Assembly (NCBI GenBank): GCA_044222185.1
Contig: JBGANV010000001.1
Coordinates: forward strand, 2,048,001 to 2,112,000
DNA length: 64,000 nucleotides
Direction: 5' to 3'
DNA from: Planctomycetota bacterium
GTDB taxonomy: Bacteria; Planctomycetota; GCA-002687715; CAIWVZ01
The position numbers and the translations under genes are program-made. Shown here piece after piece: positions 13,524 through 64,000 of this stretch (the stretch's first letter is position 1; each line of letters begins with the position of its first letter). The notes under the pieces are model-generated. The model was not told the origin of the DNA. It did no database searches and saw only the letters and a program-made list of their open reading frames with translations.

Positions 13524-13840
13524 CGGTCGGAGCCCTCCTTGCGCAGAGCCATGCCGCAGATCGGACACGCGCCCGGCTCATTGCGTCGGATCTGCGCGTG
13601 CATGGGGCACACGTAGGGACCGGCCGGCGAGGCCGACTCCTCCCTCCGACTCGTGGGTGCGGACTCTGCGGCGAGACCCTCGCCCGGCTGCCAGGAAGGC
13701 CCGGAAGACGCGTCGGGGCTCGCTGGGTGCGTCGCAGGGAAGGGCGGCATCGGCGGCGCCGGGGTGCAACCCGAAGCCGTCAACCAGAGCAGCAGGGCGA
13801 CGCCGGCCGCGAGGGCGACCGAAGGCGGGCGCCCGTTCAC
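13520..13840 (-). CDS. Heavy-metal-binding-domain lipoprotein
   Basis: [24 protein letters not shown] motif; lipobox ASGC; GTGA overlap with the YHS gene. Confidence 0.85.
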
Positions 13841-14484
13841 TTCTCGTGCTTCTCTTCCGTCGGCTCTGCCATCTTCGGTGCGGACGCCTTCGCCTTCTCC
13901 AGGTACTTCGCGGGGTCCTTCTTGATCTCGTCGACCGAATCCTTGGACGCGAGGTGGATCAATCGGTCGCCGACGACGACGAACGTGTTGTCCATCACGG
14001 TCTTGTCACTGACCGGATCCTTGGTGTTCTTGAGATCCTTGACCTTCGGGTTCGTCAGCAGCGTCAAGACGATGTCGCCGTTGTCGCGAACGGGTTTCGA
14101 GCAGTCGGCGCAGCACACGCGAATCTCCCGTCCCTGGTAGATGACGGCGACCCCCTCACCGCTCTTGATCGCCTCGCCGCTCACGGGGCAGATCGTGTTG
14201 CCGAGCTTCTCCAACTTGGGGTAGGCCTTGGCGTATGCGGCCGCCGGGTCCTTCTTCACCTTCTCGACACACATCTTGCAGCAGAGAAACACGCGTCCCT
14301 GATCCGTGTCGACGAACACATCGGCCTTCGTCGCCTTCCCCATGATCGGGCAGGTGGGGTTCATGAACGTTGGGACGGAAACGGCCGGTGTCACCTTCGG
14401 GTCGACGGGTCGCGATTCCTGCGCGTCCATTGGGAACGCGACGAGCACGGCAGAGACGACGAGAATGGAAACAGGTCGAAGCAT
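13837..14484 (-). CDS. Secreted YHS/TRASH-repeat metal-binding protein
   Basis: Two CP(I/V)xG...CCxxC units plus a third Cys-less copy; signal peptide; AAGGGAG RBS. Confidence 0.85.
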
Positions 14485-14756
14485 GACGACACTCCCTTTT
14501 CGACGATCGACGCCCGTGCGTCGCACCCTGGCGGACCACGCCCTACCGTGCGATGGGTCGACTTTGATGTTGGTTTCGAGGCGTGACGTGGGGACCTCGA
14601 GTATCGGACCAGGACGCGGCAGGGTCAACTCGGCGTCGAACAAACGCGTGGCCCCCGACGAGCACGCGGGCGCATCGTCGTCGAGGACGTGCCGCCCGCG
14701 CGACCGCGAAGCGCTGCCGATTCGGCTGCAATCACCGTCGCGCCGCGTGGGGTCTG

Positions 14757-15272
14757 TCACGGAAACACGAAGGTTGCGACGTTCGTCAGCGTGACGATCA
14801 TCCCACCACCGCAGTTGATCGTGCTTCCTGAGCCTGGGCCACTCATGCCGCCCGAGCCCATGCCGCCCGAGCCCATGCCGCCCGAGCCCATGCCGCCAGT
14901 GCCCATCGTCCCGGACATGCTCACGACTCCGCCTTGCACGTAGGCCATCGTCCCCGAGAGCGGCGGCGGTATGGAGCCCGGAAGGATGTTGACCGTGAGC
15001 GAGAGCGCCCCGCTCGCGTTGGTGGTCCCCATATCCATGAGGATCCATGGCGGCGCGATTCCGAGCGTGACGCCGCCCATGGTCCCGGGTCCCAGTTGGA
15101 GTGAACCGGCGAGGATCACGTGCGCATTCGCTGCCGCCCCCGACACGCTGATCGTGACCGCTGGCGGCGACGTCGTGCCCGTCGCGGCAAGGGTCGGCCC
15201 CTGGGCGGCCAGAACACCTGCAAGCAAGAACGCGGCGATCGAAACGGACCAGCTGCAGTGTGAACCACGCAT
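14757..15272 (-). CDS. Small secreted protein: candidate C-terminal domain with a Met/Gly-rich insert
   Basis: Signal peptide ending VLAA-Q; IPPPLSGTMAYVQG ... (GGMGS)n ... LTNVATFVFP; GGAG RBS. Confidence 0.7.
   Translation of the reverse strand: MRGSHCSWSVSIAAFLLAGVLAAQGPTLAATGTTSPPAVTISVSGAAANAHVILAGSLQLGPGTMGGVTLGIAPPWILMDMGTTNASGALSLTVNILPGSIPPPLSGTMAYVQGGVVSMSGTMGTGGMGSGGMGSGGMGSGGMSGPGSGSTINCGGGMIVTLTNVATFVFP
14844..14903 (-). repeat. 15-bp tandem repeat encoding GSGGM (3 perfect copies, 1 degenerate)
   Basis: catgccgcccgagcc x3 then catgccgccagtgcc on the + strand. Confidence 0.9.
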
Positions 15273-15644
15273 GATGATCGTCTCCGTGAGGAACGTCCGA
15301 GGCGGCGTTCCCGCGACCGTGCGGGGACGCTCGCCGACCTGGATGCTGTCGCCGATCTCTCCCGGCAGTACGGGCTGAAGTGCGACGCCATCGCGCGCGA
15401 GTCTGGACCTCACCGGCGCCTGAGTGCCTGCCTTGGAGAACCTCTGGCCGCGGACGTCAGGCGGCGCTCGGACGGTCCGTCGGTATGGCCCAGGGTCGCC
15501 ATGCAGCCGGCGGCTCCACCGCAAGGAGGTTGCGCGCGGATCGAGGACGAGGATCTGGGTCACGGGGTCGCCCGGACGCAGGAGCAGCGCTGGCAATCGA
15601 CCGCGCAGGGTTCTTCGCGGCCGAGCGCGCGTCGGCCCGAACGG

Positions 15645-52293: not shown

Positions 52294-53493
52294 GTGTCAC
52301 GATCCGTCCTTCTCGCTCTCGCCTTCGTCGTCTGCGTGCCGGCCCAGACCGACACGAAACCCGTCACCGGCGGAGACCCGGTCATGCCGGCCGACACCGA
52401 AATCAAGACGACTCCGTCCGGACTCAAGTACTCCGTGCTGAAGGCAGGCAAGGCCGACGGCCGTACGCCTGGGCCGGGCGACAAGGTCCGCGTCCACTAC
52501 AGCGGCTGGCTGACGGACGGCAAGCTCTTCGACTCGTCGGTGAAGCGCGGGCAGCCGTTCGACTTCAGCGTCGGGTCCGGCGTCATCCAGGGATGGAGCG
52601 AAGCCGCCCAGCTCATGACCGAAGGGCAACGCATCAAGGTCACGATCCCGCCGAACCTCGGCTACGGCGAGCGCGGGTCGCCGCCGGTCATTCCGGCGAA
52701 CGCGACGCTCGTGTTCGAGATCGAGTTGCTCGACATCCTGGCGATCGCGCCCAAGCTCCCGGAGTCGCACGCCGACAAGCAGAAGACGACGGCCTCCGGT
52801 CTGAAGTACGAGGTGATCCAGGAAGGAAGCGGCGACTCGCCCAAGGAAGAGGACACCTGGGAGCTGAAGTACGCCTTCTGGAACGGCACGGGCAAACTGA
52901 TCGACTCGTCGGAGGCGAACGGTCGTCCGTTCAAGGGATCCGCGAAGACGATGCGCTTCAAGTTCCTGCAGGAGGCGCCGGCACTGATGAAGGTGGGCTC
53001 GAAGGTCCGCTTCGACGTCCCGCCCGAGCTTCTGTTCGGCGCGCAGGCGCGCGGCCCGGACCTCCCCGCCAACTCGGCGACGGTGTGGTTGCTCGAGCTC
53101 GTCCAGATCGTGAAGCCGCTGCCCATTCCCGAGTTCGCCAAGAGCGATCCGGCGAAGCTCCAGAAGACCGCGAGCGGCCTCCAGTACGAGGTGATCAAGG
53201 AAGGCACGGGCAAGACGCCCACGATGGGTCAGAAGGTGACGGTCCACTACGCCGGCTGGCTCATGGACGGCAAGCTCTTCGACTCGTCCTTCGGCCGCGG
53301 TGAGCCCATGTCCTTCACCCTCGGCGCCGTCATCAAGGGCTGGAACGAAGGCCTGCAGATGATGAAGGAAGGTTCGATCTACAAGCTCACGATCCCGCCC
53401 GAGCTGGCGTACGGATCGCAGGGCGCGCCGCCGACCATCCCGGCCGAGGCGACGCTCCTCTTCTACGTCGAGCTGATCAAAGTCGGCGAGTGA
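52294..53493 (+). CDS. Secreted FKBP-type PPIase with three FKBP domains
   Basis: Three SGL(K/Q)Y-led domains; VHYSGWL..FDSS, VIQGW, IPP.LGYG; middle domain divergent; AAAGGAG RBS. Confidence 0.93.
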   Translation: MSRSVLLALAFVVCVPAQTDTKPVTGGDPVMPADTEIKTTPSGLKYSVLKAGKADGRTPGPGDKVRVHYSGWLTDGKLFDSSVKRGQPFDFSVGSGVIQGWSEAAQLMTEGQRIKVTIPPNLGYGERGSPPVIPANATLVFEIELLDILAIAPKLPESHADKQKTTASGLKYEVIQEGSGDSPKEEDTWELKYAFWNGTGKLIDSSEANGRPFKGSAKTMRFKFLQEAPALMKVGSKVRFDVPPELLFGAQARGPDLPANSATVWLLELVQIVKPLPIPEFAKSDPAKLQKTASGLQYEVIKEGTGKTPTMGQKVTVHYAGWLMDGKLFDSSFGRGEPMSFTLGAVIKGWNEGLQMMKEGSIYKLTIPPELAYGSQGAPPTIPAEATLLFYVELIKVGE

Positions 53494-53596
53494 TCGAACG
53501 GCTGCACTCCCGCAGCCCACGTTGCGGCGCGTCACTGCGCCGCCAAGCAACTCCACGAGCGGCAGCCGTCCCCACGGCGGGCCGCTCGCTTCGTCG

Positions 53597-53911
53597 ATGG
53601 GGCGCGGTTCAGCGGGATTCTCGGCGCCGCTCTCCGTGTTCGAACCGAACGGCGCGCCCTGGGCGAAGGTCGCACCGAATGGCCCCGGCAACATTCCCGT
53701 GCCGCCGTTCGGTCACATCCTGATCGATCCGTCCTCGTCCATCGTGCTTGCACCCGGCACGATCACACCACCGTCGGGCACCACCGTCACCGTCAACGTC
53801 CCGCCGAACCCCGCGCTCGCGGGGTTCTCGGTCTGGTGGCAGGCCCTCATCGTCGAACCGGCCGGACCCCGGCTCACGGGCGCCGTCGTGACGACCGTGC
53901 TCTGGATTTGA
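53597..53911 (+). CDS. Orphan copy of the candidate C-terminal domain, no signal peptide (possible remnant)
   Basis: VNVPPNPALAGFSVWWQALIV...RLTGAVVTTV; start unclear. Confidence 0.45.
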   Translation: MGRGSAGFSAPLSVFEPNGAPWAKVAPNGPGNIPVPPFGHILIDPSSSIVLAPGTITPPSGTTVTVNVPPNPALAGFSVWWQALIVEPAGPRLTGAVVTTVLWI

Positions 53912-54054
53912 AACCCGCGCCTTTGCGTCGACGCGTCGGCGCATGCTGACCAGGAACGCGCCACGACGCCGCGTGTCGCGGTCCCCGACCGCGCGCGCAG
54001 GCCGCGTAAAACGCCGGTCGCGCGGCGCTCATGGTGGATCGAAAGGTCACAACC

Positions 54055-56982
54055 ATGCACCACAGGCTCCTGCTCGTCGTCGCCTCGCTCGCCTTCCCGG
54101 CGGCGAGCCAGATGACTCTCGTTTCCATCTCCCCGCCCTCCGCGATCGTCGGAGGTCCCGGCTTCACGCTCTCGCTCACCGGAAGCGGATTCGCGTCGAC
54201 GAACGTCGTGCTGTGGGACGGTGGCACGCTCGCCACGACGTTCTCCAACTCGACGCACCTGACGGCCGCGGTCCCGGCGGCGTTGATCGCGACGGCCGGC
54301 ACCGCCACCGTCCGCGTCAGGCAACTCCTTCCGACGCCCACCTTCTCCAACTCCCTCGTCTTCTCCATCAACAACCCCGCGCCGGTCCTCGCGACCGTGA
54401 CGCCATCGACGTTGCAGGTCGGCGCCGCATCGACGACGCTGACGATCACGGGGTCGGCCTTCAGCCCCGCGACCGTCGCGCGCATCGGATCCACGGACCT
54501 GTCGACGACCTTCGTCAGCTCGACGGTGATCCAGGCCGTGGTCCCGGGCAGCCTCACGAGCGTCACGGGGAACGTCCAGTTCTCGATCTTCAATCCAGCT
54601 CCGGGCGGTGGCACCTCGTCGGTCGTGAGCTTGAGCGTGCAGAATCCGCTGCCGGTCCTCTCATCCATCAGTCCGAATCAGGTCGGCGTCGGGAACGTCG
54701 CGGTCACGATCGTCGCGTCCGGCAGCGGGTTCGTCCCGGGATCCACCGTTCGACTGGGCGCCGGTGCCTTGTCGACGACGTTCGTCAGCTCCACGCAGCT
54801 CTCGGCCATCCTGCCCGCGTCGGCCCTCGGGAACGCAGGAACGAGCCAGATCTCCGTCACGTCGCCGACGCCCGGTGGCGGCACGAGCCTGGGGCAGCCG
54901 TTCACGGTGACGAATCCGGCTCCGACGCTCTCGAGCGCGACGCCCACGGTCGTGCCCGCCGGCACGGCCACGACGCTCACGCTCGTCGGGACGGGATTCA
55001 ACGCACAGACCGCGGTGCAGGCCGACGGCGGCGTGTTGCAGACGTTCCTCGTGAGCTCCACGCAGCTCACGGCGATATTCGTCCCGTCGATCGCGGGAGT
55101 CGGCAACCTCGTGGCGATCACGGTCGTGAATCCGTCCCCGGGCGGCGGCACGACCGCGGCTCAGACGCTGGCGATCGGCAACCCGATCCCATTGCTGTCG
55201 ATCGTGACACCGCCCACCGTCACGGCGACGACGACCGGCTTTGGGATCGCCGTGATCGGTTCGAGATTCGTGCCGACGAGCACCGTCCAGTGGGACTCCA
55301 CCACACTCTCGACGACGTTCGTCAATTCGCAGCAGCTGCTGGCGACGGTCCCACCCGGCTTCGCGACGATCGCCGCCGCGCACACCATCGCGGTCTTCAG
55401 CCCGGCGCCGGCCGGCGGCGTCTCGTCGACGAGGACGCTGACCGTCGAGAATCCGGTTCCGACGCTCACGTCGATCGAACCTGCGGCCGTTGCGGTCGGG
55501 ACTCCGGCCCTCACCATGTCCATCGTCGGCGCGGACTTCGTTCCGTCGAGCTCTGCGTTGGTGGACGGCGTCCCGGTCACCACCACGTTCATCGACTCGT
55601 CGTCCCTGATCGCGACCGTTCCCGCGTCGGCGCTTCTCGATCCAGCGGTGCGCCTCATCGCCGTCTCGAATCCAACGCCCGGCGGCGGCGTCACGGCCGC
55701 GCTCAGTCTCACCGCGGTGAACGCGATCCCGAGCATCACCTCCGTGAGTGCGGTGCAACCACCCCTCGTGGTCGACGGCCCGGAGACGCTTTCCATCGCC
55801 GGCTCGGGGTTCCACGACTTCTCCGTGGCGAAGCTCGATGGCGCCGCGTTGGCCACGACATTCGCCGGATCGTTGACGGGCCCTGCGACCTTGACGGCAA
55901 CCGTTCCGGCCAACTTCCTCGGTGTGGGTGGGCCGCACCAGCTCACGGTGTTCAACTCCGGTAACGGCGAAGGAGAGTCGGCGCCCGTCACGATCGTCTT
56001 CGAGAACCCCCACCCCGTGATCGCATCCCTGTCCCAGGCGTCGATCCCGGGAGGCAGCACCGACACGACCGTCGTCGTGAACGGCTCGGGGTTCGTCACA
56101 TCGACGGTCGCGACGCTTTCGGGATCGCCGGTGGCGTCGCTCTACTTCGGCCCGGGGACCATACACGTCGTCGTCCCCGCGGCGTTGGAGCGGGCGTCAC
56201 GGCAGTTCTCGCTGGGACTGACCAACTCGGGGCCCGGCGGAGGCAGCACATCGACCCCGCTCCTCGTCACGGGTCCCGTCGTCGCGTCCGTGGTTCCCGC
56301 AGCGGTCCCCGTTCTCGCGCCCGGCTCGACGCCGGTCTCCCTGACCGTGACCGGCGGGCCGTTCCAGCCCTCGGACACGATCCACCTGAACGGCGCAGCG
56401 TTCGCGACGAACCACCTGACGGCACCCACGCTGACGTGCACGCTCGATCCGAACGTGCTCGTGGTGCAATCGCCCGGCGGATTCGCGCTCACGGTCGTCC
56501 GTTCCGGCACCGCGGGGCTCGTCGCGTCGAATGCGGTTGGCGTCGCCGTCGGTTCGCCCGACAACGCCGGGACCGTCACGCTCGCGCCGCGGGCGCCTCC
56601 GCCCGGACAGGGGTTCAACGTTCGCGCCGAGTTCCCCGTCGGCTCCGTGCCGTTCACGCTTCTCGCGGAGATTCCGGCGCCGACGGCGCTCCTGCTCTCG
56701 ATCACTCCGTCGTTCGAGCTGGCGCTCGGGCCGGGCCTCGCGTCGCCCATCGTGCTCGTGGACGGGCTCGGTCTCTTCGGCCCCGCGTCGGGTGCGGTCA
56801 CCGCACCCGACGACCTGTCGGTCCTCGGCGGACCCGCCGCCCGCAGCCTCTTCGAGATCCCGGGACTCGTTGCGCCGTCGCCACCGCTCGGCACCACGTT
56901 CTCGCTCGCGGCGATCTTCGCGGACCCCTCGTCGCCGATCGGGCTGAACGTCACCCACATCGGTGGACCGCACGGAATGTGA
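54055..56982 (+). CDS. Secreted protein with ~9 IPT/TIG Ig-like repeats plus C-terminal domain
   Basis: ~90-aa repeats NP.P.LSSI.P...G.GF...L.TTFVSSTQL.A.VP...NP.PGGG.S; signal peptide; GAAAGG RBS. Confidence 0.88.
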   Translation: MHHRLLLVVASLAFPAASQMTLVSISPPSAIVGGPGFTLSLTGSGFASTNVVLWDGGTLATTFSNSTHLTAAVPAALIATAGTATVRVRQLLPTPTFSNSLVFSINNPAPVLATVTPSTLQVGAASTTLTITGSAFSPATVARIGSTDLSTTFVSSTVIQAVVPGSLTSVTGNVQFSIFNPAPGGGTSSVVSLSVQNPLPVLSSISPNQVGVGNVAVTIVASGSGFVPGSTVRLGAGALSTTFVSSTQLSAILPASALGNAGTSQISVTSPTPGGGTSLGQPFTVTNPAPTLSSATPTVVPAGTATTLTLVGTGFNAQTAVQADGGVLQTFLVSSTQLTAIFVPSIAGVGNLVAITVVNPSPGGGTTAAQTLAIGNPIPLLSIVTPPTVTATTTGFGIAVIGSRFVPTSTVQWDSTTLSTTFVNSQQLLATVPPGFATIAAAHTIAVFSPAPAGGVSSTRTLTVENPVPTLTSIEPAAVAVGTPALTMSIVGADFVPSSSALVDGVPVTTTFIDSSSLIATVPASALLDPAVRLIAVSNPTPGGGVTAALSLTAVNAIPSITSVSAVQPPLVVDGPETLSIAGSGFHDFSVAKLDGAALATTFAGSLTGPATLTATVPANFLGVGGPHQLTVFNSGNGEGESAPVTIVFENPHPVIASLSQASIPGGSTDTTVVVNGSGFVTSTVATLSGSPVASLYFGPGTIHVVVPAALERASRQFSLGLTNSGPGGGSTSTPLLVTGPVVASVVPAAVPVLAPGSTPVSLTVTGGPFQPSDTIHLNGAAFATNHLTAPTLTCTLDPNVLVVQSPGGFALTVVRSGTAGLVASNAVGVAVGSPDNAGTVTLAPRAPPPGQGFNVRAEFPVGSVPFTLLAEIPAPTALLLSITPSFELALGPGLASPIVLVDGLGLFGPASGAVTAPDDLSVLGGPAARSLFEIPGLVAPSPPLGTTFSLAAIFADPSSPIGLNVTHIGGPHGM

Positions 56983-57195
56983 CGTCGGAGTCGAGGCCGC
57001 GGTGGCCGAGTGACCGCCGCGGTCGCTCGGCTCCGGCACTCCCGCGCACGACGTGCTACCGCCGTCGGCTCGGTGTTCCTGCGACTCATGTCCGCCTTCG
57101 CCTCGACGACGCGCCTGGGCCGAATCAGAAGCCGGACCGCTCGGCCTCGCACCCCGGCTAAGATCGCGACCGTCTCGATCGCAGGGAGGTGCCCC

Positions 57196-57882
57196 GTGAA
57201 AGTCGCCATCATGATCGCCGTCGTCGCGCTCGGCCTCGCGGGCTGCGGAGCCCCCGACTCCCGCCCCACGGCTGGCGCCTCGCCCGATGCGGCCGCATTC
57301 GCCCAGCTCCCCATCGAACTGACGGTGAACCAGCGGACGACGACGCCCCTTCCCGGATCCGTGGGCCCGATCAGGCTCACGATCGACGACGTCACGCGCG
57401 GTCAGGTGATGACGAGCCTGGCGGCGCACGAGGGGACGACGCTGCTCGCTCCGACGTCATTGCGCGAGGGCGATACCGCCCCGTTCCAGGCCGGATCGCG
57501 TACGTATTCACTGCGCCTGAAGACGCTCACCAACAACCTGATCGGAAACGACTCGGCCACGTTCGTCGTCGAGCCCGATGGCGCCGTGAGGCCCGCGAGC
57601 GCGACGATCGAGACGCTGATCACCGCCGTCGCGAACATGGACGGAGCGGTGTTCATCCGGAATGGAGCCGAGTACTCGGCCGGGGACGCCGCAGATCACC
57701 TCCGTGCCAAATGGCAGGCTGCTGGCGAGGCCGTGACCACCGTCGACGAGTTCCTGCGGCAGGTCGCCGGTGGTTCCTGGTTGACGGGAAAGCCGTATCG
57801 CGTGCGCTTCGCAGACGGTTCGACGCGCCTGCTCGTCGACGTTCTGCGTGAGCGCCGCGCGGAGATCGAACGCCACGACTGA
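57196..57882 (+). CDS. Lipoprotein with C-terminal DUF5329 (YfeK-like) domain
   Basis: Lipobox LAGC; FIRNGAEYSAGDAADHLRAK...EFL..VA..S..TGKPY.V; GGAGGT RBS. Confidence 0.8.
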   Translation: MKVAIMIAVVALGLAGCGAPDSRPTAGASPDAAAFAQLPIELTVNQRTTTPLPGSVGPIRLTIDDVTRGQVMTSLAAHEGTTLLAPTSLREGDTAPFQAGSRTYSLRLKTLTNNLIGNDSATFVVEPDGAVRPASATIETLITAVANMDGAVFIRNGAEYSAGDAADHLRAKWQAAGEAVTTVDEFLRQVAGGSWLTGKPYRVRFADGSTRLLVDVLRERRAEIERHD

Positions 57883-57942
57883 ATCGTCGCCATCGCCGAC
57901 GGAACCGGCGTGCGATCGTCACCTCTGTCGGGACCCCGCGCT

Positions 57943-58413
57943 CTAGAAGAACGACGCCGCCAGGCCGTTCGACATCTGGAAGCTGCTGCAGAGGCAGAAC
58001 GTGTCGAAGTGCCGTGCCGCGCCCTGAACGTAGACCACGATGCCGGCCAACGGTGGGCCGGACGGGAGTTGGAGCATCAACGTGTCACCCGACGACGACG
58101 GCCACTCGAGCACCGCGATGTCGGGATTGACGAGCAAGGAGCACCCCGTCCCGATCGTCGGGAGCGGAACGTTCGCAGGTGAGGTCCCCAGGGCGAACAC
58201 ACGCCCCACGAGATAGACGTTGCAGCAGACGGGCGACGCCTGAACGCGCAGACTGACGGCGCAGGCGTTGGGGTCATACGACCCCGAAAGGATTGGCACG
58301 ACTCCGAACGGGGCGCATCCCGCGCCATAGGACGAGAACGAGACGCCCGAGAGGTTGTTGCACTGCCCGAGTGCTGCTGCGCACACGATGACGGCGAGGA
58401 TTGCTGACTTCAT
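57943..58413 (-). CDS. Small Cys-rich secreted protein consisting of the candidate C-terminal domain only
   Basis: MKSAILAVIVCAAALG-Q; YGAGC ... GCSLLV ... PPLAGIVVYVQG ... MSNGLAASFF. Confidence 0.75.
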   Translation of the reverse strand: MKSAILAVIVCAAALGQCNNLSGVSFSSYGAGCAPFGVVPILSGSYDPNACAVSLRVQASPVCCNVYLVGRVFALGTSPANVPLPTIGTGCSLLVNPDIAVLEWPSSSGDTLMLQLPSGPPLAGIVVYVQGAARHFDTFCLCSSFQMSNGLAASFF

Positions 58414-58584
58414 GGGCGCCGATCGTACTGCGCAGGTTCCGGCTGATGAAAGCTGCGCCCTTCGGCCGGCGACGGGGATCACGCGACGACGCACAGGTCG
58501 TTCATCCACGATCCGCGTTCGACAGTCCGCACTGGCGCAAACCCCGTGAGTGGTCTATGTTCCGGCACCGACCGGAGGTCGCAA

Positions 58585-60834
58585 ATGAGGTTGAAGCGCG
58601 CCGCTTTGGCGTTCACACGAACGCCGAAGCGCTGGATCGACGGCTGGAGCCCGTGCCTCGACGCACGACGGCGCGGGCCCACGCCCGTGCTTCGAGCCAT
58701 CGTTGCGACCTTGTGCTTCGCCACGGCGTCGGCCGGAGAGCTGTCCGCCCAAGCCCACACGCGCGGAAGCGGTCAGATCATCCTCGCGTCGCGCTGGAAC
58801 GACGAACCGGTCGTGGAAGTCGCCGCCGGAAAGGACCACGCGTTGGCGCGCCGCGGCGACGGCACCGTCGTCGCCTGGGGGCGCAACGTCGAAGGCCAAT
58901 GCAACGTGCCAACCCTTCCGCCGGGCGTCGTCTTCGTCGCCATCGCCGCGGGCGGCAACAACTCGCTCGCGAAACGAAGCGATGGATTGGTCGTCGAGTG
59001 GGGCGACAACACGTTCAATCAGAACACGGTACCGGCACCGCCAGCCGGAACGTCCTACGTCGAGTTCTCCATGGGCCTGAGCTTCACGCTCGCGCGCCGG
59101 AGCGACGGAGTGGTCAGGGGCTGGGGTGCAACGACGTTCGGACAGGCCAACGTCCCCGCTCCAGCGGCGGGGGTGACGTACACGAGGTTCAAGGCCGGCG
59201 CCTACCACGGGATCGGCCTGCGCAGCAACGGAACGGTCGCGACGTGGGGGCTGTGCCTCGGCGGCGCATGCGCCGTCCCGTCACTGCCCGGTGGCGTCGT
59301 GTGGGTGGACGTCGCCGCTGGCGAAGGCTGGTCCACGGGACTGCGCAGTGACGGCTCCGTCGTGGGCTGGGGAAGCGGGACGACGTCGTCGATCGCGGCA
59401 TCGCTGGTGCCCGCTCTTCCACCAGGCGTGTTCTATGACGCCGTCCTGACGGGCTGGGGATTCCCGGTGGCACGCCTCACCGATGGAACCTACGTGGGTT
59501 GGGGTTACCTGGGAGCCAATGCTCCCGCTCCGCCTCCCCCGCCTGTTGGGATGTCATACACGAGCGTGGGCAGCGGGCGGCTCGCCGGCGTTGCTGCGCG
59601 ATCCGACGGACTTCTCGTCCCCTTCGGTGACAACGCAGCCGGGCAGATGAACGTGCCGGCGCTCCCGCCCGGGATCTCGTACTTCGATGTGAAGACGACC
59701 TCGACCCACACCCTCGCATTGCGAAGCGACGGCATCGTGGTCGCCTGGGGGACCAACGCGAACGGCGAGCTCTTCGTCCCCGCCTTCCCGCCAGGCGTCC
59801 TCGGCACCAAGATCGCCGCGGGTGCCACGCACAGTGCGGCCCTGCTGAGCGACGGGTCGATCACGGCCTGGGGCAATACGCAGAACAACCTCACGTTCAC
59901 TCCGCCGCTCCCGCCGGGGGTCACGTACACGGACGTCGCCGCGGGAGACCTGCACGACTTCGCGCAGCGCAGCGACGGAACGGTGGTGGCCTGGGGTGAC
60001 AACACCTACGGGCAGTTGAACATCCCCGCTCCGCCCAGCGGTCAGACCTACAACGTGATCGCCGCGGGACCGCGCAGCAGCTTCGCGGCGCGCAGCGACG
60101 GCGTGATGCTCGCGGCCGGGCAGAACCTCTACAACAACCTGAACGTGCCCGCGCTTCCGCCGGGCGTGTTCTACGTGCAGGTCGCGGCCTCGCTCGAGCA
60201 CACGCTCGCGCGGCTGAGCAACGGCACGGCCATCGCGTGGGGTTGGAATGCCTACGGCCAATGCAACGTGCCCGCGCTCCCGCCGGGAGTGAGCTACACC
60301 GACATCGCGGTCGGGAGCCAGTTCAGCCTGGCGCTACGCAGTGACGGCGTACTCGTGACCTGGGGGAACAACGGCGCGCACCAGCTCGACATCCCCCCGC
60401 TGCCGGCAGGCCTCGTGTACACGGGCATCGCCGCACGCGATGCGGAGGTCATCACGCTCGACAGTCCATCCGTGCCCGGCGTCCTCGAGCTCCACTTCTC
60501 ACAGCCATCGGGGCCCGGGACCGGCCTCGCCATCGCCGAGTTCGGCCTCACGGCGGGTCGCGAGTACCGCACGATCTTCAGCCTGGATCTCTGCCCCGCG
60601 GGTCCCGGGACGGGCCCGCTCGGCGGGTTGTGTTTCAACAACCTCTCGTTCCTCGGACTGCAGGTCCTCTACCCCGTCAACGCATTGCCGTTCCACTTCG
60701 CGCCGTTCGGGCCCGTCAACGTCTTCGGACCCTATCGGCTCCAACCGGGGCTCACGTTCGAAGCCATCACCGTGGACGTGACGAACGGGGTCCCGGGGCT
60801 GATATCACCAGCCGTGCGGTATTCGGTGCTCTGA
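58585..60834 (+). CDS. Secreted RCC1/BLIP-II-like repeat protein (~14 repeats) plus C-terminal domain
   Basis: Thirteen full ~40-aa units (VPALPPGV.Y..IAAG..H.LA.RSDG.VV.WG.N..GQ) and one partial; start 58585 (GGAGGT) or 58687. Confidence 0.88.
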   Translation: MRLKRAALAFTRTPKRWIDGWSPCLDARRRGPTPVLRAIVATLCFATASAGELSAQAHTRGSGQIILASRWNDEPVVEVAAGKDHALARRGDGTVVAWGRNVEGQCNVPTLPPGVVFVAIAAGGNNSLAKRSDGLVVEWGDNTFNQNTVPAPPAGTSYVEFSMGLSFTLARRSDGVVRGWGATTFGQANVPAPAAGVTYTRFKAGAYHGIGLRSNGTVATWGLCLGGACAVPSLPGGVVWVDVAAGEGWSTGLRSDGSVVGWGSGTTSSIAASLVPALPPGVFYDAVLTGWGFPVARLTDGTYVGWGYLGANAPAPPPPPVGMSYTSVGSGRLAGVAARSDGLLVPFGDNAAGQMNVPALPPGISYFDVKTTSTHTLALRSDGIVVAWGTNANGELFVPAFPPGVLGTKIAAGATHSAALLSDGSITAWGNTQNNLTFTPPLPPGVTYTDVAAGDLHDFAQRSDGTVVAWGDNTYGQLNIPAPPSGQTYNVIAAGPRSSFAARSDGVMLAAGQNLYNNLNVPALPPGVFYVQVAASLEHTLARLSNGTAIAWGWNAYGQCNVPALPPGVSYTDIAVGSQFSLALRSDGVLVTWGNNGAHQLDIPPLPAGLVYTGIAARDAEVITLDSPSVPGVLELHFSQPSGPGTGLAIAEFGLTAGREYRTIFSLDLCPAGPGTGPLGGLCFNNLSFLGLQVLYPVNALPFHFAPFGPVNVFGPYRLQPGLTFEAITVDVTNGVPGLISPAVRYSVL

Positions 60835-60921
60835 CGTCCGCGGCGCGTCCGCGTTGCGAACGTCCTCGGCCGGGCGGTGCCGCCGCGTGCGACGACATCG
60901 CGGCGGGCACACGCCGCGCCG

Positions 60922-61779
60922 TCACTTCTTCGCCGGAGCCATCCACTCCTCGAGCAGCTTGCGGAGCCCGGCGATGTACTCCTTCGGCGCCTTTCCCTCC
61001 GCGATCTCAGCGGCCTTCTCCACGCAGGGCACGGCTTCGTCGCCACGGCCGAGTTGTTTGAGGATCCGCCCCTTCCACTCCCACGCCCAGAAGCTGTTGC
61101 TCGCGACGCGAGCCTCTTCGGCCCAGCCGAGCGCCTCCGTGAGCCGCGTGCCCTTGTTGCTGTAGTACTTGGCCGCCTGCAACAGCGGCGCCACGTCCTC
61201 TTTCTTGCGAGTCGCGAGCGCAGTCGCGAGCTTGCGGTCGACGATGGCGCTCACGTCGACGTGCACGCGGAACGACCAGCGGATCCGATCCCAGCGGAAC
61301 GACACCTCGGCGTTCTCGTCGTCGACGGGATCGATCGCGAGAGTCATCCATTCGCAGACGTCGGCTCGGGACTCCGCCTTCACGTCGAAGCGAAGCACGT
61401 CCGCTTTCTCGTCGTAGAAGTACGAACCCCACTGTTTGGCCTGCCGATTGAGGATGATCGTCCACGCATCGTCCTTGACCGTCGCGAAGAGGGCGTACGT
61501 ACCGGCCGCCAGCTCCTTCCCGGCGATCGTGCACGGGTCTCCAACCTCGAACGTCGTGGCTTCGTTCGCACCGAGACGCCAGACCACGCCCGCGTTCGCG
61601 ATCTCCTTGCGCAGGTCGCGTCCCTTCACGGCGGGCCGGTGATAGCGAACCTCGATCTTCGTGGTGCCGACCACGAGGCTCGAAGATGCCGCCGGGCTCG
61701 GCCATGGCGTGAGGGGCTCCTGTGAGATCAGGTCGACCGAACAGACCATCGCCAGGATCAACGCAGCGGAACGAATCAT
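60922..61779 (-). CDS. DUF2911 domain protein with C-terminal TPR
   Basis: YHRPAVKGR, VWRLGANEAT, LAAGTYALF, WTIILN, QWGSYFYD..DVLR; AGGAG RBS; signal peptide. Confidence 0.9.
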   Translation of the reverse strand: MIRSAALILAMVCSVDLISQEPLTPWPSPAASSSLVVGTTKIEVRYHRPAVKGRDLRKEIANAGVVWRLGANEATTFEVGDPCTIAGKELAAGTYALFATVKDDAWTIILNRQAKQWGSYFYDEKADVLRFDVKAESRADVCEWMTLAIDPVDDENAEVSFRWDRIRWSFRVHVDVSAIVDRKLATALATRKKEDVAPLLQAAKYYSNKGTRLTEALGWAEEARVASNSFWAWEWKGRILKQLGRGDEAVPCVEKAAEIAEGKAPKEYIAGLRKLLEEWMAPAKK

Positions 61780-62100
61780 GAGAACTCCTCAGGTAGGGGC
61801 CGTGTCACGATGTCTCAGGTCGGAAAAAGCTTACGAGGTCGACCGAAAACCCGTCCACCGTGTTCCTCTTAACCGAGTGTGTCGGATTCGTTGGACGGAC
61901 GAGACCAAACAGCCGGTTTGACTCTCCTTCGCGAAATGCTGATGATCCGGCCGCAACCTTTCCGGGACGGCCTCGACGTCCCCCGCATGCAGCCGCGAAT
62001 CGACGCGAAGGTCGCCGCGGGCAGGCGCAATGGCACGTACTTGCCGTCACGCTGACGGACTCGTCCCTACCCGCGAACCACGCAACCCAGGAGTGATCGA

Positions 62101-63588
62101 ATGTCCAGGATCGCCAACGTCCGGCGCGCGCTCGGCGCCGTTCTCGTCACCCTCTGCATCTCCCTCGGATCGACGGCCTCTGCGCAGTCACCCATCGGAA
62201 CCGGGAACCTGGTCGCCGTCCGCATCGGCGACGGCGTGGCCGCGCTCAGCGGTTCGTCCCAGGCGACGTTCCTGGACGAATTCACGACGGCAGGAACTGC
62301 CGTGCAGTCCGTCGCCATGCCGACGGCGGTGAGCGGAACCAACTACCGGCTCACGAACTCGGGCACGGCGACGTCCGAAGGCAACCTGAACCTGTCGACC
62401 GATGGCCGCTACTTGATCCTGTGCGGGTACGACGCGGCGCCCGGAACGACCGGCATCGCAGCCACGACCACCAGCGGCGCCACCGCCGTCCTCCGCGTGA
62501 TCGGCCGCGTCGATCGCAACCTCGGCATCGACACGACGACGGGTCTCACGGCGTACTCCGCCACGAACATCCGCTCGGCGACGAGCGTCACGGGCAACGA
62601 TTTCTGGGTCGGTGGACCGACGAACGGCGTCAGCTACGTGCCCAGCGTCGGCGCGACGACCTCCACCCAACTCGTGACGAACCCGAACAACATCCGCGTC
62701 GTTCGGATCTTCGGCGGCCAGCTCTTCACCGGTTCCGCCACGGGTGCGTACCAGGGCGTGAGCGCCGTGGGCGTCGGGACTCCGACCACGTCGGGACAGA
62801 CTCTCTCGCTCCTCCCGGGATTCCCCACGGCGACCGGTCCATCGGCCTATGACTTCTTCTTCGCGGACGCGAACACGCTCTACGTGGCCGACGACCGCAC
62901 GAACGGGTCGGGCGGGATCCAGAAGTGGGTTCTCACGGCCGGGACGTGGACGCTCCAGTACACGCTCGCCATCGCGCCGACGGTCGGCTGCCGCGGCCTC
63001 ACCGGCGTCGTCTCGCTCGGCACGACCACGCTCTATGCCACCACGACGGAATCGAGCGCGAATCGCATCGTGACGGTGACGGATGCGGGCGCGGGATCGC
63101 CCTTCACCGTTCTCGCCACGGCCGCCGTGAACACGGTGTACCGCGGCCTCCGCTTCATGACGCCTCTCGCGAGCGTGAGCGTCGTCGGAACCGGCTGCCC
63201 GGGTACGGGCTCGCTCGTTCCCACGCTCTCCACGTCGCAGCTGCCGTTCCTCGGCAACCTCGGTTTCTCGGTCGACGTCGCGCAGGGTGCGTCCGGCTCG
63301 GCGGCCTTCCTCTACGTGTCGCTCGGGACGGATCCGAACGGCGTGGCCGTCGGTGGCGGCTGCACCGTCTACCTCGATTTCCCGAGCCTCCTGATCCTGC
63401 TCCAGGCGAACATCACGCCTACGGGCCCGGTGCCCACGGGCATCGCCGGTGACGCCGTGATTCCGTTCCCGATCCCGGATCTGGCGCAGCTCGCCGGTCT
63501 GCACGTCGGGTTCCAGTCGGCGATCGTGGATGCCGGCTCACCGCTCGGGCTCACGCTCACCAACGCGCTCGACTGCGTCCTGAACTGA
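62101..63588 (+). CDS. Secreted Thr/Gly-rich beta-propeller-like protein plus C-terminal domain
   Basis: Signal peptide ending TASA-Q; GNLVAVRIGDG..FLDEFTTAG..SGTATSEG.L.LS.DGRYL, LYVADD..GGIQKW; AGGAG RBS. Confidence 0.85.
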   Translation: MSRIANVRRALGAVLVTLCISLGSTASAQSPIGTGNLVAVRIGDGVAALSGSSQATFLDEFTTAGTAVQSVAMPTAVSGTNYRLTNSGTATSEGNLNLSTDGRYLILCGYDAAPGTTGIAATTTSGATAVLRVIGRVDRNLGIDTTTGLTAYSATNIRSATSVTGNDFWVGGPTNGVSYVPSVGATTSTQLVTNPNNIRVVRIFGGQLFTGSATGAYQGVSAVGVGTPTTSGQTLSLLPGFPTATGPSAYDFFFADANTLYVADDRTNGSGGIQKWVLTAGTWTLQYTLAIAPTVGCRGLTGVVSLGTTTLYATTTESSANRIVTVTDAGAGSPFTVLATAAVNTVYRGLRFMTPLASVSVVGTGCPGTGSLVPTLSTSQLPFLGNLGFSVDVAQGASGSAAFLYVSLGTDPNGVAVGGGCTVYLDFPSLLILLQANITPTGPVPTGIAGDAVIPFPIPDLAQLAGLHVGFQSAIVDAGSPLGLTLTNALDCVLN

Positions 63589-63640: not shown

Positions 63641-64000
63641 TCAATCGAGCAGTGTCACACCGAGGATCACGTCTCCCGGGACGAGAGCGTCGACGACGTC
63701 CATCCCGGACTCGACGTCACCGAAGTTCGTGTAGCGGCCGTCGAGGTGCGGTGTTGCGCGGTGGCAGATGAAGAACTGGCTGCCACCCGTGTCCTTGCCG
63801 GCGAGCGCCATTCCCACGGACCCGCGAACGTAGGGGCGGGCATTCAGCTCGCAGCGAATCGTGTAGCCGGGGCCGCCCCAGCCATCGCCGCGCGGGCATC
63901 CCGCCTGGGCGACGAACGCGGGCACGACGCGGTGCCACAGGATGCCGTCGTAGAAGCCCGACTTCGCGAGGCGCACGAAGTTCGAGACGGTGATCGGCGC
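63641..64000 (-). CDS. Cyclophilin-type PPIase, C-terminal part (runs off the window)
   Basis: [47 protein letters not shown]. Confidence 0.92.

Follow-up and report, generated by a model that had tools for sequence, protein, structure and literature searches.

Terminal beta-sandwich domains of exported Planctomycetota proteins: two uncatalogued families restricted in lineage

Within a 64,000-nucleotide stretch of Planctomycetota DNA (contig JBGANV010000001.1, positions 2,048,001 to 2,112,000; hereafter the window, numbered from its first letter), six open reading frames (ORFs), designated T1 to T6, finish in a beta-rich tail. An initial annotation, made by inspection of the sequence, had described these tails as a single C-terminal domain shared by unrelated secreted proteins, and had proposed that it serves for recognition or attachment in an uncharacterised export or assembly pathway. 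Analysis of the whole genome, of related genomes and of public protein data has shown that the tails represent two large families of terminal beta-sandwich domains on exported proteins, here called families A and B, which are uncatalogued and restricted in lineage. All six ORFs are present with the C-terminal sequences that had been quoted (Table 1), and signal peptides occur on five of them, as had been stated, T3 being the exception. The window belongs to a Planctomycetota genome of 7.08 Mb in 16 contigs, with 67.5% G+C. Among the matches listed, its RpoB shares 59-68% identity with sequences from Planctomycetota, as against about 55% at most with those of other phyla. DNA of the window has also turned up in activated-sludge and bioreactor metagenomes, whereas no RNA run is listed for it, a result that weighs neither for nor against expression.

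Table 1. Tail-bearing proteins encoded in the window, with approximate limits of the tails
Protein	Position	Strand	Length (aa)	Composition	Tail
T1	62101..63588	+	495	signal peptide, passenger of ~345 aa, family A tail	~63127-63585
T2	57943..58413	-		signal peptide, family A domain only	
T3	53522..53911	+	129	N-terminally truncated family A domain without signal peptide or passenger	
T4	14757..15272	-		signal peptide, divergent family A-like domain	
T5	54031..56982	+	983	signal peptide, TIG/'choice-of-anchor Z' repeats, F5 tail	~56563-56979
T6	58546..60834	+	762	signal peptide, RCC1 repeats, family B tail	~60445-60831

The starts of two of these genes lie inside longer frames: the longest ORF of T2 runs to 58509 (188 aa), with a likely start at the Met at 58413, and that of T4 spans 14757-15596, with a likely start at 15272. 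With regard to the passengers, which had been described as unrelated, two of the three assignments have been confirmed by family matches. The T5 passenger matches TIG (Pfam, 1.4e-35) and the 'choice-of-anchor Z repeating domain' (CoaZ; NCBIfam NF058597, 1.3e-147), of which it is a member with 480.3 bits over nine stretches against a cut-off of 30, and the T6 passenger matches RCC1_2 (Pfam, 2.5e-66). The T1 passenger, which had been called propeller-like, has no family match. Tails sharing 36-53% identity with that of T1 occur on nine proteins, joined to passengers that bear no resemblance to the T1 passenger (E>0.28). Searches of Pfam and NCBIfam at E≤0.1 gave no match for any of the six tails, nor for any part of T1-T4.

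The relationship among the tails was approached by single-sequence phmmer, in which each tail was compared with the complete set of 40,934 six-frame ORFs in the genome, these being longest-frame calls in a high-G+C sequence. Paralogues were recovered for T1 (16), T3 (21), T5 (20), T6 (18) and T4 (three), and T2 recovered only itself. Nearly all of these paralogues finish 0-5 residues from the C-terminus, including all 20 of T5, carried by proteins of 780-1680 aa, and the 18 of T6. The six tails do not detect one another in these searches, the best pair being T3-T2 with an E-value of 0.081, and their six-way alignment has a mean column identity of 31% and no invariant column, which could be taken as a sign that the tails are unrelated and resemble one another by chance or by composition in a 67% G+C genome. 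A hidden Markov model (HMM) of family A, built from 135 other copies of the same genome with the six window proteins excluded, nonetheless matches T1 (2.1e-29), T3 (1.7e-17) and T2 (3.9e-06, residues 45-188). It gave no match to T4, T5 or T6. Profile-profile comparison by hhalign yielded probabilities against family A of 95.5% for T2, 96.4% for T4 (90 columns) and 94.1% for T5 (106 columns), and of 0.5% for T6. Independent E-values of 1e-6 to 1e-29 and probabilities of 94-96%, in addition to confident folds obtained from paralogue alignments and 4,032 public clusters at E≤1e-10 (both described below), leave the chance explanation with hardly any credibility. By these sequence comparisons it is refuted for five of the tails, whereas T6 indeed has no sequence-level relation to the others. 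On account of the HMM matches and the profile-profile probabilities, the tails of T1-T5 are homologous members of one superfamily, in which T1, T2 and T3 constitute family A proper and the T5 tail (F5) and T4 are distant branches, while the T6 tail represents a separate family B with no detectable sequence relation to family A. The single shared domain of the initial annotation thus holds for five of the tails and gives way to two families at T6.

The consensus of the 135 family A copies is marked by a Gln (91%), a Ser/Thr (96%) followed by an Asn (54%), two Gly (92-93%) and a Pro (91%), and a subset of the copies has a Cys pair (G.GC ... GGC). The G.GC and GC motifs that had been noticed in two copies are indeed found in T1 and T2. 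Family B has invariant G, P, G, P and P columns of its own, as well as conserved Cys positions. The T4 domain carries a Gly/Met-rich low-complexity insertion of GGMGS-type repeats, placed after the strand with the conserved Gln and before the final one, and this insertion recurs in one close paralogue (G000:C3:7693-8232).

Structures were predicted with AlphaFold2 from alignments of paralogues. The T1 tail is modelled as a beta-sandwich of about 125 aa with some ten strands and one short helix (predicted local distance difference test, pLDDT, 93.8; predicted template modelling score, pTM, 0.86), and the T6 tail likewise as a beta-sandwich (pLDDT 92.0, pTM 0.83). A Foldseek search of the family A model against the PDB returned nothing at E≤1e-3. 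With an exhaustive aligner, the best match of family A was a macroglobulin (MG) domain, that of alpha2-macroglobulin 6tav (Z 9.2, root-mean-square deviation (rmsd) 3.0, 101 residues aligned), followed by immunoglobulin (Ig)-like receptors, with 499 solved chains at Z≥5. Family B was matched best by fibronectin type III (FnIII) and Ig domains, with the IL-23 receptor (8oe4) in first place (Z 8.1, rmsd 3.0, 89 aligned), and 12 entries are common to the top-50 lists of similar chains of the two families. The models thus place both families in the Ig/MG/FnIII-like beta-sandwich fold class, an assignment of fold class alone that does not imply homology: the sequences are only 9-12% identical to these best structural matches, and Z values of this size typically reflect no more than a common arrangement, from which no function follows. 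A Thr/Ser-Gln ester cross-link was also considered, the idea having come from the prominence of Gln (91%) and Ser/Thr (96%) in two columns and from weak Foldseek matches with ester-bond domains (template modelling score 0.27), but strand parity suggests that the Gln pairs with the Asn column instead.

In the genome as a whole, families A and B and the F5 branch are carried by 261 proteins in union. Family A accounts for 196 proteins and 197 domains (E<1e-3, 40,934 six-frame ORFs), of which 164 end within 5 aa of the C-terminus, five at 6-20 aa and 28 (14%) at more than 20 aa. Family B is found on 29 proteins, ending within 5 aa of the C-terminus in 28 of them, and F5 on 37, in 32 of which it does so. 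The proportion of copies lying within five residues of the end is thus 83-97% across the three. A signal peptide was assigned to 148 of 191 family A, 21 of 29 family B and 28 of 37 F5 proteins (72-77%) as against 433 of 1,248 controls (35%), by a crude rule and with long ORFs of high third-codon-position G+C as the controls. Because of the signal peptides and the conserved Cys pairs, the tails are probably extracytoplasmic. Placement is C-terminal in most copies, but not in 28 of family A, which are N-terminal, internal or in tandem. In several proteins of the latter kind the domain comes straight after the signal peptide and precedes Kelch-like sequence, and one protein of 396 aa is made up of a signal peptide and three tandem family A copies. 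The idea that the tails end in an outer-membrane beta-signal was rejected, given that no more than 40 of the 144 C-terminal copies have an aromatic last residue (F, Y or W) and that Pro (32) is the commonest. Tail genes are no more clustered than by chance: at most five occur in any 12 kb, as compared with 4.1 +/- 0.6 for 261 randomly placed genes, so that no genomic island is needed for the five tail genes that the window contains within a 10-kb section.

A wide range of passengers is joined to these domains. Among 76 public homologues analysed with Pfam, family A passengers were FG-GAP/VCBS in 50 cases, Kelch and Laminin_G_3 in two each, and trypsin, matrixin, Ig, PPC, beta-helix, DUF3466, Rax2+Ig and GBD_T9SS_assoc in one each, with no match in 14. 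On 17 family B proteins of the genome itself, the passengers comprised Laminin_G_3, subtilase, RCC1, Rax2/DUF5122 propellers, a C-type lectin and a C25 peptidase with its propeptide, and five had no match. The last-named, gingipain-like protein (G000:C1:676855-679443) combines Propeptide_C25, Peptidase_C25 (4.1e-59) and CarboxypepD_reg before ending in a family B tail, and no close orthologue of it was found among the 40 relatives searched. Searches with passengers alone showed which terminal domains occur on their homologues elsewhere. For an FG-GAP passenger of about 850 aa, 86 of 118 homologues carry family A (84 of them within 5 aa of the end), seven carry the C-terminal domain (CTD) of the type IX secretion system (T9SS), PF18962, and end as CTDs typically do, and the other 25 have neither domain. 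A single-protein scan gave mostly FG-GAP matches, from many phyla. For the CoaZ/TIG passenger of T5, the F5 tail is exactly terminal in seven of 119 homologues, PF18962 is present in one and a dockerin in one, and Soli_cterm (TIGR03437) terminates four of the six homologues scanned, reaching the last residue. The tails therefore occupy the slot that is taken, on the same passengers in other phyla, by recognised or suspected sorting or anchoring domains, a comparison which speaks for a role in sorting or anchoring, though purely by analogy. Five public FG-GAP homologues that have no family A match at E<1e-3 (P0213, P0214, P0233, P0242 and P0249) share the C-terminal pattern Q.WYR..(A/S).FC(T/S) ... 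TNGL..(V/T)W, which may mark a further divergent branch of the tail superfamily.

Several known systems resemble the present tails in architecture. One of them is the type A CTD of the T9SS in Bacteroidota (PF18962/TIGR04183), which is likewise a small Ig-like beta-sandwich forming the very end of numerous Sec-exported proteins whose passengers are unrelated, and which shares FG-GAP passenger homologues with family A (7/118 against 86/118). The tails differ from it in being longer (about 125 aa, about ten strands) and in having N-terminal and tandem copies as well. PF18962 and TIGR04183 had no match at E≤0.1 on the six window proteins, hhalign of seven genuine T9SS CTDs against A, F5, B and T4 and these comparisons gave probabilities of 0.06-0.67%. 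Neither of the best-50 structural lists of families A and B contains a T9SS CTD chain, an indirect comparison that speaks neither for nor against a common fold. A second counterpart is Soli_cterm, a lineage-specific, uncharacterised paralogous C-terminal domain (paralog_domain) that ends giant CoaZ/TIG proteins of Acidobacteria. At 225 positions it is about twice as long as the tails; TIGR03437 had no match on the window proteins, four Soli_cterm domains aligned to A, F5, B and T4 with less than 1% probability in hhalign, and a literature search found no paper on it. PEP-CTERM/exosortase, LPXTG and other short signals share the combination of diverse passengers with one terminal tag, and 'choice-of-anchor' passengers are defined by bearing such alternative terminal tags. 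Signals of the PEP-CTERM type (TIGR02595) consist of a short motif, a transmembrane helix and a basic cluster, whereas the tails are folded domains of about 125 aa ending in a beta-strand, and NCBIfam gave no match to PEP-CTERM or similar short signals at E≤0.1 on the six proteins. The earlier statement that the tails match no known sorting domain is in this way borne out by Pfam, NCBIfam and the hhalign comparisons with T9SS CTD and Soli_cterm, as well as by the terminal beta-strand. The literature also offers no description of these domains, as judged from searches on choice-of-anchor proteins, on Planctomycetota C-terminal sorting, secretome, type IX and FG-GAP, and on Soli_cterm; PMC7783341 deals with PEP-CTERM only.

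In public protein data, the family A profile matches 21,443 cluster representatives at E≤1e-3, and the 4,032 clusters already mentioned at the stricter threshold. The match ends within 10 residues of the protein end in all 150 public clusters listed, and the nearest Atlas clusters for both tails are hypothetical proteins of Planctomycetota with no common Pfam family. Family A was found in every one of the 22 other genomes belonging to the order, and among close relatives in three of 18 other families. Sampling across the phylum revealed it in 55 of 251 genomes, corresponding to about 16 tail-bearing families, with a distribution that is largely all-or-none by family (for example 7/7 and 6/6 as against 0/13 and 0/14). 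A metagenome-assembled genome (MAG) labelled Phycisphaera mikurensis has at least 80 family A matches, a number of matches from a genome search and not a copy number. No family A match was found in Zavarzinella formosa, three other Planctomycetota genomes, one Sedimentisphaerales MAG and four genomes of other phyla. Family B was found throughout the order (22 of 22 genomes) and in none of the 18 other families. Since kin genomes are not independent, co-occurrences at the level of the order carry little weight.

As regards the surroundings of the tail genes in the window, the group is flanked on one side by an FKBP-type gene (52294-53493; signal peptide and three FKBP_C domains, 5.5e-77) and on the other by a cyclophilin-type isomerase gene that is cut at the window end (63641-64000, 6.2e-26), both flanking genes thus encoding folding catalysts. 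The tail genes are interspersed with genes for a DUF5329 protein that has a lipobox (57010-57882, 3.3e-18) and for a minus-strand protein with DUF2911 and TPR (60922-61779, 9.8e-44). Beside T4, the minus-strand ORF 13837-15048 encodes a signal-peptide protein with repeated Cys-rich CP..G and CC..C motifs that have a metal-binding look; in its long form it overlaps T4 in a different frame, and its true start is probably internal. T3 starts 28 nt past the stop of the FKBP gene, and the junction between the two is bridged, with 0 differences, by an independent metagenome contig from another study (53111-53677). The HMM match of T3 spans profile positions 20-143 of 146, and its closest paralogues are proteins of 830-970 aa. 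Since a signal peptide, a passenger and the N-terminal strand of the domain (the first ~19 profile positions) are all missing and the frame begins so close to the FKBP gene, T3 is probably a relic, the remnant of an FG-GAP/VCBS gene.

A machinery that might export, process or hold the tails was sought with T9SS models and by phyletic comparison. The SprA model found no match in the genome and the Por_Secre_tail model (TIGR04183) was silent across it, and both results are uninformative because the control genomes were silent too. The sole match of the PorV_fam model (25.5 bits, cut-off 90) was to a FadL/TodX (Toluene_X) barrel (G000:C1:1663341-1664777), which was rejected as a partner since it is found in only five of 22 genomes of the order. 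This barrel ends in ...SFWF, and its gene lies immediately downstream of one for a Kelch protein whose family A domain is N-terminal. The PorU model reached 134.9 bits, against a cut-off of 420, on a C25 peptidase (G000:C1:2008849-2011524) that is encoded about 37 kb upstream of the window. The latter is a single-copy protein of 892 aa with a signal peptide (Pfam C25, 5.5e-73). In sequence it resembles PorU (6za2, 1e-10) more than gingipain R (2e-5), and its GHG and AC motifs, which would hold the catalytic His and Cys, align with those of both. Full-length orthologues are present in 18 of 22 genomes of the order. In the phylum sample of 251 genomes, C25 matches were counted for 29 of the 55 genomes that have family A and for 86 of the 196 that do not, the figure outside the order being 15 of 40; relatives of the catalytic domain are thus spread over 115 of 251 Planctomycetota genomes irrespective of tails. 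As the frequency is alike with and without family A, this peptidase has been rejected as a tail-specific sortase, a phyletic test that has no power to decide for family B, restricted as that family is to the order. The search for co-occurring outer-membrane or peptidase genes that had been envisaged consequently yielded two candidates, neither of which tracks the tails. The initial proposal of an attachment domain belonging to an uncharacterised pathway is accordingly upheld in that uncatalogued, lineage-restricted tails occupy the slot of a sorting tag, and not in its second half, as no export or assembly machinery has been identified.

The reading that we tentatively favour, and which comes close to an even call while falling short of one, is that the tails are retained terminal anchoring or binding modules at the cell envelope. 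Families A (with its distant F5 and T4 branches) and B are small, putatively disulfide-containing Ig/FnIII-like domains. Through domain shuffling, one clade of Planctomycetota would have joined them to the ends of Sec-exported proteins, hundreds in number, whose functional parts are unrelated. Kept on the mature proteins, they would hold or position their cargo at the envelope, possibly by binding an envelope component or receptor, and would be the functional counterpart of the C-terminal sorting and anchoring domains of other phyla and not a cleaved export signal. An envelope-placing role is favoured because of the extreme C-terminal bias in three families and because of the alternative, known tags on homologous passengers. 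A retained module fits better than a cleaved signal because the N-terminal, tandem and domain-only forms (T2, T4) point to a module that folds wherever it is placed. Several points weigh against this interpretation. The Ig-like sandwich is a very common extracellular fold that can act as a spacer, adhesin or substrate-binding unit without any part in sorting, and the best structural matches (Z 9.2 and 8.1) are generic. The comparison with choice-of-anchor proteins is an argument from analogy, the rule applied to signal peptides is so crude that 35% of the controls pass it, and neither the T9SS models nor the phyletic tests of the barrel and the C25 peptidase revealed a partner, receptor or processing enzyme. 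A serious rival, which we consider possible and yet rather unlikely, is accordingly a generic extracellular Ig-like module, adhesive, spacing or binding substrate or prey, whose C-terminal bias would stem from shuffling at the 3' ends of genes and not from any functional need. It would account for the generic fold, for the 28 of 197 family A copies in other positions, for domain-only proteins such as T2 and T4, for the lack of any machinery co-varying with the tails and for tail genes being scattered as under random placement. It is harder to reconcile with three families that independently have 83-97% of their copies within five residues of the stop codon, with bona fide sorting domains holding the same position on homologous passengers in other phyla, and with two unrelated families being placed alike in the same order.

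More specific readings, in which the tails would serve export itself, fare less well. A cleavable C-terminal signal, the planctomycete analogue of type IX secretion with an outer-membrane translocon and a sortase-like peptidase, would agree with the strictly terminal position of most copies, with the T9SS CTD found on homologous passengers elsewhere and with the secreted, PorU-like C25 peptidase that is full-length in most genomes of the order. It is nevertheless improbable: N-terminal and tandem copies could not act as cleaved C-terminal signals, nor does a strictly C-terminal export signal sit well with 14% of family A copies being N-terminal, internal or in tandem and with T2 and T4, in which nothing but the domain follows the signal peptide. 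Profile comparison with the T9SS CTD stays below 1%, SprA is unmatched (the controls being silent as well), the PorV model reaches only 25.5 bits on a FadL-type barrel of limited distribution, and the C25 peptidase shows no association with family A. A proposal for which we would claim only slightly more is that A and B tag the cargo of a pathway, as yet undescribed, by which planctomycetes sort or attach proteins at the outer membrane. Such a pathway would be a functional T9SS analogue of independent origin, and its machinery would be a gene family that tracks the ~16 tail-bearing families.

Transport of the Planctomycetota secretome across the outer membrane, and its retention there, is poorly understood, and the tails offer a handle on this problem. 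A domain carried by about 260 proteins of one genome and by more than 21,000 public clusters has been without a Pfam or NCBIfam entry, and both families merit database models, given that the proteins concerned are now labelled only as 'VCBS repeat-containing' or 'hypothetical'. The all-or-none phyletic pattern by family provides a template for seeking a partner system, while the tails themselves delimit a candidate surface proteome and offer a testable fusion tag for these organisms.

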